IMG/VR virus record: IMGVR_UViG_2923307698_000010
Length of the DNA stretch: 9,209 nt
Reading direction: 5' to 3' (one strand)
Source of the DNA: a virus
Taxonomy: Duplodnaviria > Heunggongvirae > Uroviricota > Caudoviricetes
The notes under the pieces are model-generated. The model worked only from the letters and a program-made list of their open reading frames with translations. It did not search any database and had not been told where the DNA came from. The position numbers and the translations under genes were made by a program. This document shows positions 3,280-5,244 of the stretch, in pieces; position 1 is the stretch's first letter, and every line of letters starts with the position of its first letter.

Positions 3280-3369
3280 ACAATATGTACCTCCGGTGTA
3301 CATATTACATGATTGAAATGAACCTTCAAGATACTTGTACCTTAACGGTACAAGGGTTTTAATTTCGTT
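3280..3369. promoter_or_regulatory. Divergent operator/promoter region (oR-like) between cro-like and cI-like genes
   Basis: Two palindromes with a TGTAC core: ATATGTAC-N7-GTACATAT (3283-3305) and CTTGTACC-ttaac-GGTACAAG (3334-3354). Candidate minus-strand promoter TTGAAG(3329-3324)-16-TAATAT(3307-3302) for cro; candidate plus-strand TTGTAC(3335-3340)-17-TTTAAT(3358-3363) for cI. Confidence 0.55.
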
Positions 3370-4044
3370 ATGAAAACAATCCATGACATCCGGCGGTCTA
3401 ACGCCAGAAAACTGAGAGATGGTGTTGGAGGGAATTCTTCCTTTGCCACTATGATTGATCGCGAGCCAACCCAGACCAGCAGGTTTATGGGAGATGGTGC
3501 TACTAAAAATATCGGTGACAGCATGGCACGACACATCGAAAAATGTTTCGACCTGCCTGTCGGATGGCTCGATCAAGAACACCAGACAACGAACATCACA
3601 AAAAAACCTGATGTTTCAATCACTAATAAACAAATCACATTAGTCCCTGTCATATCATGGGTACAGGCCGGAGCATGGAAAGAAGTTGGATATTCTGAGG
3701 TTGATTTGAGCACAGCAGAAACGTATCCCTGCCCTGTACCCTGTGGGGAAATGACTTATATCTTGCGGGTGATAGGTGATTCAATGATTGATGAGTACCG
3801 CCCGGGAGACATGATTTTTGTCGATCCTGAAGTACCTGCCTGCCACGGTGACGACGTTATTGCATTGATGCACGATACAGGTGAAACCACCTTCAAAAGG
3901 TTGATAGAAGATGGGACACAGCGTTATCTCAAAGCGTTAAACCCAAACTGGCCTGAGCCTTACATTAAGATCAACGGTAATTGCTCTATAATTGGAACTG
4001 TGATTTTCTCAGGAAAACCAAGAAGATACAAAATCAAAGCCTAA
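3370..4044 (+). CDS. CI-type prophage repressor with C-terminal LexA-like S24 autopeptidase domain
   Basis: 224 aa. N-terminal HTH region, an Ala-Gly candidate cleavage site (VQAGAW), a Ser nucleophile in the GDSM motif and a downstream Lys (FKRLIEDG), as in LexA/lambda CI. Confidence 0.88.
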   Translation: MKTIHDIRRSNARKLRDGVGGNSSFATMIDREPTQTSRFMGDGATKNIGDSMARHIEKCFDLPVGWLDQEHQTTNITKKPDVSITNKQITLVPVISWVQAGAWKEVGYSEVDLSTAETYPCPVPCGEMTYILRVIGDSMIDEYRPGDMIFVDPEVPACHGDDVIALMHDTGETTFKRLIEDGTQRYLKALNPNWPEPYIKINGNCSIIGTVIFSGKPRRYKIKA

Positions 4045-4056
4045 TCAATGTTTATG

Positions 4057-4079
4057 AACCTGCTTCGGCAGGTTTTTTT
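4057..4079 (+). terminator. Rho-independent terminator after the cI-like gene
   Basis: AACCTGC-ttcg-GCAGGTT hairpin followed by T7 (4073-4079), 13 nt after the cI stop. Confidence 0.65.
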
Positions 4080-4083
4080 ATAC

Positions 4084-4117
4084 TTGACAATGTACCTATG
4101 AGATACATAATGTACCC
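4084..4117 (+). promoter_or_regulatory. pL-like sigma70 promoter with operator repeats (oL-like)
   Basis: TTGACA (4084-4089), 16-bp spacer, CATAAT (4106-4111). Overlapped by direct repeats AATGTACC (4089-4096 and 4109-4116) and the inverted repeat ATGTA-N9-TACAT (4090-4108), the same TGTAC core as the oR palindromes. Confidence 0.55.
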
Positions 4118-4196
4118 AAGAGAAACAACAAACAGGCAGGACGCCCACGAAGTAGCCGCCTGGGGCATATGAAGTCCAGGATGATTCGTTAGCAAC

Positions 4197-4218
4197 AAAA
4201 AAGCGCCCTACAGGACGC
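4197..4218 (-). terminator. Rho-independent terminator of the convergent minus-strand gene
   Basis: On the minus strand: GCGTCC-tgta-GGGCGC hairpin followed by U6 (plus-strand A-run 4197-4202), ~40 nt after the stop at 4259. Confidence 0.5.
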
Positions 4219-4221
4219 TTA

Positions 4222-4233
4222 GCTCTTTAACAA
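4222..4233 (+). promoter_or_regulatory. boxA-like element (GCTCTTTAACAA) in the pL-proximal transcript
   Basis: 12-nt identity to the remembered rrn boxA core (GCTCTTTAACAA), ~110 nt downstream of the pL-like promoter. No convincing boxB hairpin follows. Confidence 0.3.
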
Positions 4234-4250
4234 TCTGGATATCCACAACA
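4232..4250. repeat. Left copy of 19-bp inverted repeat (AATCTGGATATCCaCAACA) flanking the minus-strand gene
   Basis: Matches the reverse complement of 4793-4811 at 18 of 19 positions; contains the perfect 10-bp palindrome TGGATATCCA. Confidence 0.6.
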
Positions 4251-4258
4251 GTAGTAAT

Positions 4259-4750
4259 CTACAGATTGCCGTTAAGTTTTCTGGACAACTCCTCAATGGA
4301 TGGAGGCGATACGTAATCCGGATTTTTATTCATCAGAAACTTATTTTCACAGTGGAGGCACCTGCTTTTATGAAAAAGCTCATCTTCGCTAACCGGGAAT
4401 GGTTGAAGTATCGATACTATCTTTTGTCCAAAACATTTTGGGCAAAGATGCATGGTTATGCTGCCACCGTTCACGATTACCTCCTTCGAGTATACAAAAG
4501 TACCCGACTCAAGTTGGTTAAGGATATAGCCTTCCGTCTGAGCCTCAAAGTTTTCGAATTCTGCAATTTTAGCTTTGAGAGAAGCATTTATTTCTTGATA
4601 AGAGCCCACCAGTTCAACGAGAGACACGCATTCGCGCTGAATAGACGCAAGCTTTGAGTTCAGCTCACCAATAGCCGCATTTACTTCAGCTTGAGTTTTT
4701 GCCTCGTTCATTAGTTTTGCAATCTGGGCTGTTTCACGAATAGCCGTCAT
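4259..4750 (-). CDS. Hypothetical protein: N-terminal coiled-coil plus C-terminal CxxC…CxxC zinc ribbon; moron-like gene between cI/pL and the early-left operon
   Basis: Start taken at ATG 4750-4748 (alternative GTG at 4774 with an AAGAG ribosome-binding site). Residues upstream to 5038 are Arg-rich, low-complexity and cross the inverted repeat and GC-rich leader, so are judged non-coding. Own terminator at 4197-4218. AT-rich relative to flanks by eye. C-terminal motif CPKC…(20 aa)…CLHC. Confidence 0.6.
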   Translation of the reverse strand: MTAIRETAQIAKLMNEAKTQAEVNAAIGELNSKLASIQRECVSLVELVGSYQEINASLKAKIAEFENFEAQTEGYILNQLESGTFVYSKEVIVNGGSITMHLCPKCFGQKIVSILQPFPVSEDELFHKSRCLHCENKFLMNKNPDYVSPPSIEELSRKLNGNL

Positions 4751-4792
4751 TGCTGCCGTTAATTCAGCGATCACATTGAATACTCTTATTGT

Positions 4793-4811
4793 TGTTGGGG
4801 ATATCCAGATT
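4793..4811. repeat. Right copy of 19-bp inverted repeat (TGTTGgGGATATCCAGATT)
   Basis: Reverse complement of 4232-4250 with one mismatch. Embedded in a 13-bp direct repeat TTGTTGTTGGGGA (4789-4801 and 4822-4834). Confidence 0.6.
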
Positions 4812-5061
4812 AACCGAATCCTTGTTGTTGGGGAATAACCAGGTCCACCTCGCCTGATGTGGCTAAAAGCAGGCACATAACAGCTAAGTATTTTCAACCA
4901 GAGAGAATCCTTAGCGTTGTGGTGAATGCGGCTCAGCGCACGCGGGTTAAGGTTGAGGCTGACAGTCGACCTTCTGTGGATACCCACCCGCCTGGTGTGC
5001 AACCTTCGCCAGGCACCGGGAGGCACCCGGCACCACAAGTTTATGCTGTGTGTAGTCCTGG

Positions 5062-5107
5062 CGGTACCAGTTTGTACCCTTGCTTCCGGCTGGTACCGTC
5101 CTTTTTT
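5062..5107 (+). terminator. Intrinsic terminator in the leader upstream of yfdP
   Basis: 9-bp stem CGGTACCAG (5062-5070) / CTGGTACCG (5090-5098) with a 19-nt loop, followed by T6 (5102-5107). Confidence 0.55.
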
Positions 5108-5244
5108 GCAAAACAGAGAAGAGCATCACCGGACGACGGGCTCATAACCCAATCCATCCGGGCGGCTGCCACCGCAGGTGTTCTTCTCTGTTTTGTGGAG
5201 AAACCAACCGACCTTGCAGGGTCGATATGATGAGGAGCAGCAAA

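Follow-up and report, generated by a model that had tools for sequence, protein, structure and literature searches.

What do two inverted repeats that bracket a single gene, just beyond a CI-like repressor, do for the prophage that carries them? The 9,209-nucleotide stretch of phage DNA analysed here (the window) holds such a pair, and the original prediction had offered a MITE-like mobile cassette, an inversion module or paired operator sites as explanations. The repeats are real and not a chance match. They are parts of a module that is conserved but carries no annotation, located in the leader of the early-left operon of a prophage similar to SfV and e14. It begins with a minus-strand terminator, after which come BoxA with the left arm, an interior cassette that varies, the right arm, an 8-nt spacer, a hairpin with a GGGG loop and a tail that runs to about 4880. 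We infer that the arms form the closing helix of an RNA "socket" that E. coli prophages, both SfV/e14-like ones and other lambdoid types without N, carry in their early-left operon. The parts of the locus are:

4084-4111, plus strand: putative early-left (PL-like) promoter, TTGACA-16-CATAAT, with 11 of 12 matches in a promoter scan
4195-4220, minus strand: intrinsic terminator of the cassette gene from a terminator scan, its stem (4201-4220) followed by a U-run on the minus strand
4222-4233, plus strand: BoxA, GCTCTTTAACAA, matching the rrn BoxA at 12 of 12 positions and perfect against the functional consensus GYTCTTTAANA (Baniulyte et al. 2017)
4232-4257, plus strand: left (5') arm of the inverted repeat, overlapping the final two bases of BoxA
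4259-4774, minus strand: cassette gene, family A, 171 amino acids, WP_000559922 (open reading frame list and RefSeq annotation)
4786-4811, plus strand: right (3') arm, which includes copy 1 of a direct repeat (4789-4801)
4807-4835, minus strand: possible weak promoter of the cassette gene, read from the sequence, with -35 TTCCCC (4835-4830), a 17-nt spacer and -10 TAATCT (4812-4807)
4812-4819, plus strand: spacer AACCGAAT from right arm to hairpin, 8 nt here, 8-9 nt and variable in sequence in the alignment
4820-4843, plus strand: conserved hairpin CCUUGUUGUU-GGGG-AAUAACCAGG, which holds copy 2 of the direct repeat (4822-4834)
4845-4880, plus strand: conserved right end CCACC..GCCTGA.GTGG..AAAAG.CAGGCAC, kept across different phage backbones

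Anatomy of the repeats and their flanks

The 19-bp inverted repeat was described correctly: AATCTGGATATCCaCAACA at 4232-4250 matches the reverse complement of 4793-4811 at 18 of 19 positions. In a repeat search the arm pair is the longest inverted repeat of the window, with 26-nt arms that are 85% complementary and 528 nt between them, and its exact 13-nt core, AATCTGGATATCC, occurs only at 4232-4244 on the plus strand and at 4799-4811 on the minus strand. With up to two mismatches allowed, the core has three matches against 0.20 expected (three or more in none of 200 shuffles), and the best inverted-repeat score within 1 kb was equalled in two of 300 dinucleotide shuffles. The strongest evidence against a chance palindrome, which the original prediction had named as a possibility, comes from related loci: among 105 found through the right-hand hairpin alone, 93 keep the arrangement, with BoxA leading directly into an arm whose sequence complements the right arm. 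The 13-bp direct repeat TTGTTGTTGGGGA is likewise present at 4789-4801 and 4822-4834, and lengthens to about 23 nt if one indel is allowed. The palindrome reported for each arm was half right, since the left arm has TGGATATCCA and the right arm has GGGATATCCA instead; the palindromic 8-mer common to both is GGATATCC. Overlooked on first reading were the consensus BoxA, with which the left arm overlaps, and the fact that the second direct-repeat copy is one half of the conserved hairpin.

The PL-like promoter overlaps two CI-operator-like repeats (4089-4127), and the GTACC operator motif found there recurs in the palindromes between cI and cro. From its position it would drive plus-strand transcription across the module toward yfdP, xis and int; scanning from PL to yfdP revealed no further plus-strand promoter and no plus-strand intrinsic terminator. 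BoxA lies about 110 nt downstream of this promoter, in the leader of the early operon, which is where a lambda-type nut site would lie, and it is the only exact match in the window, identical to the BoxA of the rrnB leader. Because a search of the window found no other BoxA downstream of the rightward promoter of the same phage, and no counterpart of nutR, we take BoxA to be a part of the module and not of a phage-wide system. The terminator to its left is kept in most module copies and, when read on the plus strand, becomes a hairpin directly 5′ of BoxA, for which a boxB-like label is weak because the hairpin is mainly a minus-strand terminator and its plus-strand role is doubtful.

On the other side of the cassette, 89% of cells of the GGGG hairpin alignment are paired, both members have changed in five of the ten pairs, and a single G.U pair never varies. 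Its wobble pairs are specific to the plus strand (48 against 12), while those of the terminator are specific to the minus strand (24 cells against 3 on the plus strand); this opposite sign means that the wobble test does discriminate between strands. The conserved right end at 4845-4880 could form two alternative small stems, neither with covariation. An N-like protein or open reading frame, as a possible reader of the GGGG hairpin, was not found downstream in any backbone. A permissive Rfam search (E up to 1) of 4190-4880 matched no family, the nearest match being a sub-threshold STnc100 at 4894-5109.

Distribution of the module and the genes it carries

Of 5426 complete E. coli genomes, 1113, about a fifth, contain the right-hand part of the module, where nothing is annotated; a genome has one to three copies, and all copies examined share this module context. 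Carriers include O55:H7 and O157:H7 strains, with the family A copy, and the ECOR-derived phages PhiR49_1 and PhiR29, with the copy found in the window. When one genome per species was scanned for the right arm and hairpin, eight matches appeared, all in unrelated taxa (archaea, Flavobacteria, Bacillales and the like), approximately the number expected by chance, and by this strict pattern the module looks confined to phages of E. coli and Shigella and absent from species representatives. It is not essential for early-left transcription, because e14 of K-12, SfV, ST64B and sal3 have neither BoxA nor the arms at the same place; the first three of these hold other cassettes or non-module DNA there. 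Literature on boxA in prophages, RNase III, morons, lambdoid hotspots, ymfK/e14 and T7 R0.3 yielded no account of the module.

Exactly one annotated gene lies between the arms, as had been said, yet it is no orphan: its protein is a member of phrog_1244 (E = 9e-60), a PHROGs family without assigned function, and has many diverged homologues at the same position. The protein has a coiled coil at its N terminus and a CxxC...CxxC C-terminal part; neither Pfam (above threshold) nor PADLOC matched it. Below threshold, Pfam offered a coiled-coil family for this protein and LprI for that of family B, and PADLOC gave only a marginal match to a 2TM effector, for family D. The PHROGs families of all cassette proteins are listed as function not assigned; the proteins are 98-176 amino acids long, fall into five families and are not hok-like. 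Altogether at least five unrelated gene families, in about 20 distinct cassettes, occur between the common ends. The main gene is antisense to the early promoter in each family, with the same orientation in all of about 60 loci, and in every family a gap of 0-25 nt separates the right arm from the ribosome-binding site or start codon. Homology between the window and prophages that carry other cassettes at this locus breaks inside the arms (at 4238/4791 and 4240/4803), and the cassette junctions are ragged, falling on the left side after AATCTGG, after GGAT, after GATATC and so on.

How are these genes exchanged? The original prediction of a small mobile cassette survives in the sense that a replaceable cassette sits between the repeats: at the same locus elsewhere the segment is replaced by other cassettes, while no empty or inverted form was found. 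The mechanism proposed for it fares badly. A MITE or transposon-like cassette moved by a transposase in trans, or a segment inverted by a site-specific recombinase, would account for a single gene bracketed by 26-nt inverted repeats of the kind found at transposon ends, and for the recurrence of the family A gene with its repeats in a different prophage type at 93.6% identity. The interior is also somewhat different in composition, although the difference that had been stressed is modest (GC 0.37-0.48 in the cassette against 0.54-0.61 rightward). However, the block common with that other prophage type is 4222-4882, which reaches past the arms, and it occupies the same context there, within the early-left operon and following the repressor. 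Neither a variable target-site duplication nor an empty site was found, the junctions are imprecise and the interiors unrelated, which speaks against a MITE; the flanks are fixed (BoxA to the left, AACCGAAT and then the GGGG hairpin to the right), and no copy was found elsewhere. An artificial inverted query was covered to at least 80% nowhere in the 5426 complete E. coli genomes, contrary to an inversion module. Nor is a transposase or invertase associated with the cassette, which is flanked by the CI-like repressor and yfdP; apart from an unrelated IS3 transposase and a broken integrase, 3-4 kb away, the window contains no recombinase gene. The mobile-DNA reading is thus largely refuted, and we give it hardly any credence. 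An integron gene cassette was considered too and rejected on its ragged junctions, the lack of an attC-like element inside the cassette and the lack of intI.

Morons, in the concept of Hendrix and Juhala, are accessory genes with their own promoter and terminator that lie between the genes of lambdoid phages. The cassette gene resembles them: it has its own intrinsic terminator, on the minus strand, phages that are otherwise nearly identical may have it, lack it or carry another gene instead, its composition deviates somewhat, and it adjoins the immunity region, which is home to exclusion and defence genes such as rexAB. Classical morons, in contrast, have not been described with conserved inverted ends or an antitermination signal on the opposite strand, and in the module it is the flanks and not the gene that are the conserved unit, and no consensus promoter was found. 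Whatever the arms do, the module marks the exact borders of a hotspot for the exchange of small genes among lysogens, next to the immunity region, and it is plausible that these are exclusion or defence genes.

Probable pairing of the arms and the strand on which it would act

Pairing between the arms appears to be under selection. The mean duplex energy of an arm with its own partner is -25.45 kcal/mol, against -21.80 +/- 0.44 with permuted partners, and none of 2000 permutations was as good. In the arm alignment 81.7% of cells are paired, a figure that falls to 34-44% when the partner is slid by one to three columns, and 23 pairs have changed on both sides compared with 15.9 in shuffles (none of 500 reached it). 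Co-adapted variants include GGATGACT/AGTCATCC, TCTGAATACC/GGTATTCAGA and GTAACCCTC/GAGGGTTAC, as well as TCTT../..AAGA, GGATACCCC/GGGGGTATCC and an inner AATG/CATT; arms that differ from the rest and are still complementary to each other occur in four to six lineages, and among them is a fully replaced 9-bp core. The right-arm core GGATATCCAGATT is kept where the partner arm is present, and is degenerate in eight of nine distinct copies that have no BoxA and no left arm, even though the bases neighbouring the core stay conserved in those copies. On the other side, uncompensated changes occur in several lineages (L017, L093, L098 and L164), and complementarity decays past about 20 bp.

Might the arms instead be bound by a dimeric protein, whether a regulator of phage or host origin or a product of the cassette, that loops the DNA or represses the cassette? 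The palindromic 8-mer in each arm and the 13-nt core, invariant in most copies, would suit such a protein, and a promoter of the cassette would be expected in a region that the right arm overlaps. Yet the arm sequence varies by compensatory substitution, which suggests base pairing and not a sequence-specific protein site, and the variants of family B, of the L002 and L142 types and of L149 have lost the palindrome while keeping the complementarity. A cassette-specific regulator is unlikely because five unrelated cassette proteins share the same arms, and the left arm, downstream of the stop codon, would be an odd place for an operator. The paired operators envisaged at the outset are not those of CI and Cro, which are GTACC-N-GGTAC palindromes (3285-3353 and 4089-4127) and have nothing in common with the arms. 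We consider the protein-site explanation very improbable.

A second alternative grants the arms no present structural role. BoxA could once have been followed by a palindrome or hairpin, which the arrival of a gene in its loop divided into the present arms; these would persist as boundaries for cassette swapping by homologous recombination, with their complementarity owed to ancestry or occasional gene conversion. Joined without the cassette, the arms would give AATCTGGATATCCAGATT, a perfect palindrome of 18 bp, and the direct-repeat copies resemble an old 33-bp tandem duplication. Both arms lie in flanks that are conserved on many backbones, with ragged junctions as recombination anchors would have; most arm pairs are consensus, and many left-arm changes are uncompensated. 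But recombination anchors need not be inverted, and this account fits poorly with the lineages whose arms are different and complementary, with own partners that beat every permutation, and with the decay of the right-arm core in partnerless copies among conserved neighbours. Arms of 13-26 bp are also short for gene conversion. Searches for the unsplit form told against it as well: IMG/VR yielded no unsplit palindrome AACAATCTGGATATCCAGATTA and no BoxA 1-62 nt from the GGGG hairpin, and among the top 40 E. coli hits to an artificial empty-site query there were two-piece hits only, all with a cassette. A split palindrome is, in our estimation, an improbable source of the arms, if a far better one than a protein site.

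If the arms pair, on which strand do they do so? The plus-strand duplex is the more stable one in 32 of 38 distinct arm pairs, and in the 1133-nt plus-strand leader the arms pair in both the minimum-energy and the centroid fold, in a helix of 20-26 bp (22 Watson-Crick pairs, three G.U pairs and one mismatch). An outer pairing of 4189-4198 with the second repeat copy, seen in the minimum-energy fold, was rejected, as CAACAA is not conserved in other copies. Wobble pairs of the long helix number 53 on the plus strand and 23 on the minus strand, an excess that we discount because the constrained right arm is rich in G and U, so that left-arm transitions give plus-strand wobbles about 2.8 to 1 by composition.

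The opposite strand offers an explanation of its own, in which pairing acts in the cassette mRNA, joining its 5′ UTR (the right-arm complement, before the ribosome-binding site) to its 3′ UTR (the left-arm complement, before the terminator). Such a closed mRNA might resist decay that depends on the 5′ end, or have its translation restrained as in the fold-back of hok-type messengers (fbi/tac), and the arms would belong to a generic expression cassette of promoter-leader and 3′ UTR-terminator. The terminator beyond the left arm does place that arm in the mRNA, and the distance of 0-25 nt from the right arm to the start codon or ribosome-binding site holds in every family. The minus-strand RNA, whose folding beats that of shuffles (z = -2.6), also forms the helix, in its minimum-energy structure and in its centroid, the compensatory Watson-Crick changes fit either strand, and the right flank is conserved even where BoxA and the left arm are lacking, as a promoter or leader would be. 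The TTCCCC and TAATCT hexamers in particular are conserved in those left-arm-less copies, and any role of 4807-4835 as the cassette promoter is speculative. However, a consensus promoter scan called neither TTCCCC-17-TAATCT nor any other minus-strand promoter upstream of the right arm. Pairing of the hok type, 5′ to 3′ end, is possible only if cassette transcription starts to the right of 4811, while the conserved TAATCT (4812-4807) would start the mRNA inside the arm and leave a weak helix, with four mismatches in the window. In 32 of the 38 pairs the minus-strand duplex is the less stable, the perfect plus-strand BoxA that always adjoins the left arm is left unexplained, and the arms of T7-like phages are on the same strand as BoxA, the sole strand transcribed there. 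We regard pairing in the cassette mRNA as unlikely, though it is the most credible of the rivals to pairing in the early-left transcript.

A possible RNA socket and its relatives

The reading that we prefer, if tentatively and at somewhat less than even chances, is that in the early-left transcript the arms pair over a long range, making a helix immediately 3′ of BoxA that leaves the antisense cassette in its loop and is probably cleaved by RNase III. Weighing against it are the related phages that do without BoxA and arms, the lack of any Rfam match and of an N-like reader of the hairpin, and the uncompensated changes in the arms. Upon induction, the PL-like promoter would be transcribed rightward to yfdP, xis and int, and the transcript would have to cross, in antisense, an accessory gene with its own minus-strand terminator. 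The hairpin and then the consensus BoxA (4222-4233) would be made first; Nus factors might bind BoxA, shield the 1.1-kb untranslated leader from Rho and keep the 5′ arm tethered at the polymerase until the 3′ arm emerges about 550 nt later and the two anneal. The annealed helix would loop out the antisense cassette and set BoxA 8 nt from the GGGG-loop hairpin. Since a helix of this length belongs to the substrate class of RNase III, the antisense cassette RNA would probably be excised, like 16S rRNA from its precursor; and since only the ends would matter, any gene could be swapped into the loop through recombination in the conserved flanks.

Were this RNA model true, the module would add a natural BoxA/Nus target to rRNA, lambda nut sites, suhB and CRISPR arrays, would take BoxA-assisted formation of long-range helices beyond ribosome biogenesis, and would explain how the phage tolerates a convergent transcription unit within its early operon; the signature of BoxA plus AATCTGG.. 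/ ..CCAGATT plus the GGGG hairpin could then serve to find new accessory cassettes. A broader proposal, possible but doubtful to us, is that prophages have here a plug-in socket for accessory or defence genes that works on the logic of rRNA processing: a Nus complex recruited by BoxA would shield the transcript from Rho and deliver the 5′ arm to the 3′ arm, so that a backward insert is looped out, cut by RNase III and made invisible to early expression, while antisense read-through silences the accessory gene in the lytic phase. If so, BoxA and the Nus factors would have a new cellular role, and the cassette hotspot in about 20% of E. coli genomes a mechanistic basis. Even if the RNA model is wrong, the conserved ends are a useful annotation of the cassette boundaries.

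The closest parallel is the leader of the rrn operons. The two have the same BoxA (GCUCUUUAACAA), and in rrnB, where the layout was checked, it is closely preceded by a hairpin and directly followed by the 5′ strand of a long-range helix, an order that the module repeats with its hairpin at 4201-4220, BoxA at 4222-4233 and arm at 4232-4257. Such helices bracket 16S and also 23S rRNA in rrn; there, and in the module if the arms pair, the helix encloses a long untranslated RNA whose transcript requires protection from Rho, and a "delivery" model for the 16S-flanking helix has been reviewed (PMC8632103). Unlike rrn, the module has in its loop the antisense of a protein gene of 0.45-0.85 kb and not rRNA, its helix is shorter and weaker (about 20-26 bp, -31 to -36 kcal/mol, against -63 kcal/mol for rrnB), it is without a GU-rich motif like boxC, and its hairpin 5′ of BoxA is also an opposite-strand terminator; Nus binding and RNase III cleavage are for the module predictions only.

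The nutL region of lambda is similar in having BoxA in the early-left leader just after a repressor-controlled promoter, in the spacing of about 8 nt between BoxA and a conserved hairpin, equal to that of boxA and boxB in lambda if the arms pair, and in the structured, RNase III-type element that follows the nut site in the N leader. It differs in that no N-like gene was found downstream in any module backbone, the module loop is GGGG and not a GNRA-like pentaloop, the rightward operon has no matching nutR, BoxA and hairpin are never adjacent without an intervening cassette, and the module BoxA has the full rrn consensus whereas that of lambda is CGCUCUUA.

Outside rRNA, Nus factors target a BoxA upstream of suhB (Baniulyte et al. 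2017) and, as reported in eLife in 2020 (PMC7665894), one upstream of CRISPR arrays. There, too, a consensus BoxA precedes a long untranslated transcript or lies near a downstream gene start, a placement that implies Nus-dependent control of Rho termination or of translation. Those systems have experimental support, but neither a long-range helix nor a swappable cassette accompanies their BoxA.

The last parallel is with T7, in which an identical 18-nt string, CGCTCTTTAACAATCTGG, lies between promoter A3 and gene 0.3, an interval that contains the RNase III site R0.3 (PMC3276506). Folding of this T7 region reproduced no defined R0.3 helix, and our claim is therefore limited to the presence of BoxA within the A3-gene 0.3 interval. 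T7 is a lytic phage and not a prophage, and its RNase III sites, which delimit the early genes in this group, are mostly local hairpins. Three T7-like phages (L065, L107 and L047) have an additional gene between inverted arms of 17-21 nt that start inside BoxA-AATCTGG, as in the module; there the enclosed gene lies on the BoxA strand, whereas in the module it is antisense.

Gene order around the early-left promoter

The window belongs to a lambdoid E. coli prophage of the SfV/e14/KplE1-like kind. Its region of interest is 100% identical to NZ_CP027586, in which the prophage lies at tRNA-Arg beside fimZ, and the inducible phage PhiR49_1 matches the window at 99.4% identity. From 4111 to yfdP we detected neither a further promoter nor an intrinsic terminator on the plus strand, so early-left transcription must cross the region of the repeats.

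Features of the window, in gene order
First: IS3 in an O-like replication gene
Next, minus strand: ymfL and a cro-like gene
3285-3353: likely CI/Cro operators between cro and cI, two palindromes, ATATGTACC..GGTGTACATAT and CTTGTACCTTAACGGTACAAG
3370-4044, plus: CI-like LexA-family repressor
4056-4075: repressor terminator
4084-4111: near-consensus PL-like promoter, TTGACA-16-CATAAT
4089-4127: two operator-like direct copies, related to the cro-cI palindromes and overlapping the PL-like promoter
4195-4220: hairpin AAAAAAGCGCCC-nnnn-GGACGCTT, intrinsic terminator of minus-strand transcription
4222-4233, plus: BoxA GCTCTTTAACAA
4232-4257, then 4786-4811 (plus-strand order): left arm, variable DNA of 0.45-0.85 kb across copies, right arm
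After the right arm: spacer of 8-9 nt
4820-4843, plus: hairpin CCUUGUUGUU-GGGG-AAUAACCAGG
To ~4880: conserved tail CCACC..GCCTGA.GTGG..AAAAG.CAGGCAC
Between this module and yfdP: structured non-coding stretch
Last, all plus: yfdP, yfdQ, yfdR, yfdS, yfdT, xis, int

The IS3 copy lies within 1-1214 / 1096-2133, inside the replication gene, and carries an ALIL frameshift pseudoknot at 282-398 (119 bits); the otherwise identical prophage of NZ_CP027586 has no IS at this site. The integrase frame (8046-9209) is broken by an in-frame TAG at 8748-8750, its counterpart intD being intact in NZ_CP027586, and together the TAG and the insertion suggest that the window prophage is defective. Also inside the replication gene, at 1761-1835, are tandem 15-bp units (CAGATTTTGACGGGT and variants), seen as four overlapping 30-nt copies with 15-bp spacing, which resemble origin iterons like those in lambda O. 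The GC-rich, structured stretch at 4894-5109 (plus), running on to ~5230, is labelled in RefSeq as a frameshifted ymfH-like pseudogene, ends with a strong local hairpin (24-nt arms 5109-5132 / 5172-5195) and matches STnc100, a family of prophage sRNAs, below threshold (39 bits vs a gathering score of 47, E = 8e-6). STnc100 has been tied to PasD sRNAs of Stx phages (2026 preprint), and the stretch is probably a non-coding RNA of the early-left leader, not a broken gene.

A conserved module around exchangeable genes

The inverted repeats are found where the original prediction had placed them, and their arms reach 26 nt (4232-4257 / 4786-4811) with an exact 13-nt core, AATCTGGATATCC, whose observed count was reached in none of 200 shuffles; 2 of 300 shuffles attained the top score for an inverted repeat within 1 kb. 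The predicted 13-bp direct repeat at 4789-4801 and 4822-4834 is likewise present. The palindrome TGGATATCCA had been ascribed to both arms; the right arm instead reads GGGATATCCA, and the supposed orphan gene between them (4259-4774, minus, 171 aa) is a member of phrog_1244.

We scanned IMG/VR in two independent ways, by the left junction and by the hairpin right of the repeats, and both retrieved the same conserved module. Its right part occurs in 1113 of 5426 complete E. coli genomes, in 1-3 copies, with no annotated feature beneath; when each bacterial species, represented by one genome, was scanned with a strict pattern, matches came at chance level only, in unrelated taxa. Since the DNA beyond it differs from locus to locus, the module occurs in several phage backbones, among them a dicB-carrying prophage of O55:H7/O157:H7, where the block in common is window 4222-4882. 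In related phages, such as e14 of K-12, SfV, ST64B and 118970_sal3, the whole of 4191-4845 is replaced by other DNA, with no BoxA and no arms. No Rfam family matched the module and literature searches found no published description of it; it is widespread and unannotated, and its anatomy is clear.

The check originally suggested, inspection of the same locus in other genomes, revealed different genes in place of the intervening segment in other E. coli. At least five unrelated families occupy it: the window's own gene, with a coiled coil and a zinc-ribbon-like part (family A), an LprI-like secreted protein (B), an ECs1072-family protein with a small convergent gene (C), a two-transmembrane protein (D) and another small convergent pair (E). 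No known function was matched for any of these in Pfam, PADLOC or PHROGs, and every family has its main gene on the minus strand. In two such genomes homology to the window breaks inside the arms, at 4238/4791 and 4240/4803, and one foreign cassette has a perfect 13-bp inverted repeat of its own, AATCTGGATGACT...AGTCATCCAGATT. That cassettes are exchanged at conserved flanks beside the immunity region is in itself ordinary phage mosaicism.

Some cassettes of families C and E (IMG/VR loci L002, L020, L079 and L014) hold a convergent pair of toxin-antitoxin-like layout, in which a plus-strand gene of 66-75 aa begins 35-45 nt past BoxA and runs into the 3' end of the larger gene, which is on the minus strand. 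Translation of suhB is repressed by a BoxA that near to its start codon, and by analogy Nus factors may control these small genes.

A MITE-like cassette or an invertible element, both suggested at first, is the least probable explanation of the repeats: there is no target duplication, none of the copies examined lies in another context, interiors are not shared, junctions are ragged, and the inverted arrangement was found in 0 of 5426 genomes. The suggestion that the arms are a pair of protein operators is very improbable as well, since they are unlike this phage's GTACC..GGTAC operators and variants lose the palindrome yet retain pairing. The module does not qualify as a MITE, an invertible switch, an operator pair or an integron cassette.

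Pairing of the arms and the strand concerned

Most copies have an invariant arm core, which is uninformative on pairing either way. In the hairpin-anchored sample, some lineages deviate from consensus in both arms yet stay mutually complementary: GGATGACT/AGTCATCC (family B), TCTGAATACC/GGTATTCAGA (a G-C to A-U change and a paired 1-nt deletion), GTAACCCTC/GAGGGTTAC (whole core replaced, register kept), TCTT../..AAGA, GGATACCCC/GGGGGTATCC, and an inner arm segment AATG/CATT. Over 40 distinct arm pairs, the duplex energy with the partner at the same locus averages -25.45 kcal/mol, vs -21.80 +/- 0.44 kcal/mol for permuted partners, and the observed mean was reached in 0 of 2000 permutations. When 27 modules are aligned, 81.7% of the cells pair, vs 34-44% with the partner slid, and 23 pairs are changed on both sides vs 15.9 in shuffles (0/500). 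BoxA and left arm are both absent from 12 loci (9 distinct sequences), and the right-arm core is degenerate in 8 of these 9 (for example GGGG-ATTTC-AGATT and GGGG-CGTTC-AGATT), while the adjoining TGTTGGGG and AGATTAAC remain conserved. Several lineages have uncompensated arm changes, and complementarity weakens past ~20 bp. Overall, the sequences provide moderate evidence that ~13-20 bp of base pairing is under selection.

The arms might instead be a relic, a split palindrome retained as a recombination anchor, and removal of the cassette would indeed leave a perfect palindrome, AATCTGGATATCCAGATT. We consider this doubtful, and a little more so than the mRNA closure discussed below, because anchors need no inverted copies, the arms are co-adapted, and no unsplit site was found in IMG/VR or among the top E. 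coli hits.

The partial modules without BoxA and left arm (L143, L157, L159, L160, L148, L150, L163, L169, L171) keep the right flank, from TGTTGGGG .. AGATTAAC through the GGGG hairpin to the CCACC tail, and this flank precedes a minus-strand gene. Their conserved hexamers, TTCCCC as -35 and TAATCT as -10, could be a weak minus-strand promoter.

Watson-Crick covariation does not discriminate between strands; wobble-pair counts can in principle, and two controls gave the expected outcome, with 24 minus-only vs 3 plus-only cells in the terminator helix and 48 plus-only vs 12 minus-only in the GGGG hairpin, where one G.U pair is invariant and 5 of 10 pairs are changed on both sides. The module thus contains one minus-strand RNA element (the terminator) and two plus-strand elements (BoxA and the GGGG hairpin). 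The long helix has 53 plus-only vs 23 minus-only cells, and its plus-strand duplex is more stable in 32 of 38 pairs, results that we mostly discount because left-arm transitions, opposite a G/U-rich and otherwise constrained right arm, yield plus wobbles ~2.8:1 by composition alone. Minimum-energy and centroid folding both give the helix, for the 1133-nt plus-strand leader and likewise for the 655-nt minus-strand RNA, and the plus-strand assignment is therefore based chiefly on anatomy: the 5' arm begins within BoxA, and a plus-strand hairpin follows 8 nt past the 3' arm.

On the minus strand, the 5' UTR of the cassette mRNA could pair with its 3' UTR just before the terminator, serving stability or translational control. 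This closure agrees with the terminator's position and with a right arm close to the ribosome-binding site; it is nevertheless unlikely, since no upstream promoter was found, the sole conserved -10-like hexamer would put the mRNA start inside the arm, and BoxA is not accounted for.

BoxA and a proposed plus-strand mechanism

The BoxA matches that of rrn at 12 of 12 positions (checked on the rrnB leader) and fits perfectly the functional consensus GYTCTTTAANA (Baniulyte et al.). The window has one exact copy, on the plus strand ~110 nt past the PL-like promoter, sharing the left arm's first two bases. Among 105 loci gathered by the right-hand hairpin alone, 93 have BoxA and a directly adjoining arm complementary to the right arm, and the window's rightward promoter is followed by no BoxA; hence BoxA moves with the module and is not a component of an N-type system serving the whole phage. 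Downstream of the module, none of the backbones showed an N-like ORF.

At the sequence level the module has both a BoxA and the rrn-like order of elements. The rrn leader shows the same layout (checked on rrnB); its helix, the primary site for RNase III, encloses 16S rRNA. There, a Nus/SuhB complex at BoxA rides the polymerase and, in a model reviewed in PMC8632103, carries the 5' strand to the partner far downstream. In T7, CGCTCTTTAACAATCTGG lies in the interval from promoter A3 to gene 0.3, which contains the RNase III site R0.3 (PMC3276506), and three T7-like contigs (L065, L107, L047) have an extra small gene within 17-21 nt arms that start inside CGCTCTTTAACAATCTGG, after which a second BoxA follows. 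Functionally, the module would resemble an rrn-type BoxA and processing-stem leader wrapped around a moron; lambda nutL/N-leader and T7 R0.3 are looser likenesses.

From the rrn-like layout and the T7-like parallel we propose a plus-strand mechanism. In an induced prophage, the PL transcript would yield BoxA and recruit Nus factors, which would shield the 1.1-kb untranslated leader from Rho. The arms would anneal as a 20-26 bp helix, looping out the antisense cassette and leaving BoxA no more than 8 nt from the GGGG hairpin; RNase III would probably cut this helix. As only the ends would matter, the insert could be freely swapped via recombination in the conserved flanks. BoxA would offset the convergent, untranslated obstacle placed in the early operon, a compensation that would account for its accompanying the module and being missing from relatives without it. 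We infer every functional step, and hold the whole tentatively, as a possibility somewhat short of even; it is directly testable.

A comparable arrangement occurs in lytic phages (L065, L107 and L047, also L015 and L081), where a host-type promoter is followed by BoxA-AATCTGG and a small sense-strand gene lies between inverted arms of 17-33 nt that are unrelated in sequence; in L065 and L107 the second BoxA after the arms is followed by the ocr gene. These cases suggest that the nesting of genes in stem-loops close to BoxA is more widespread.
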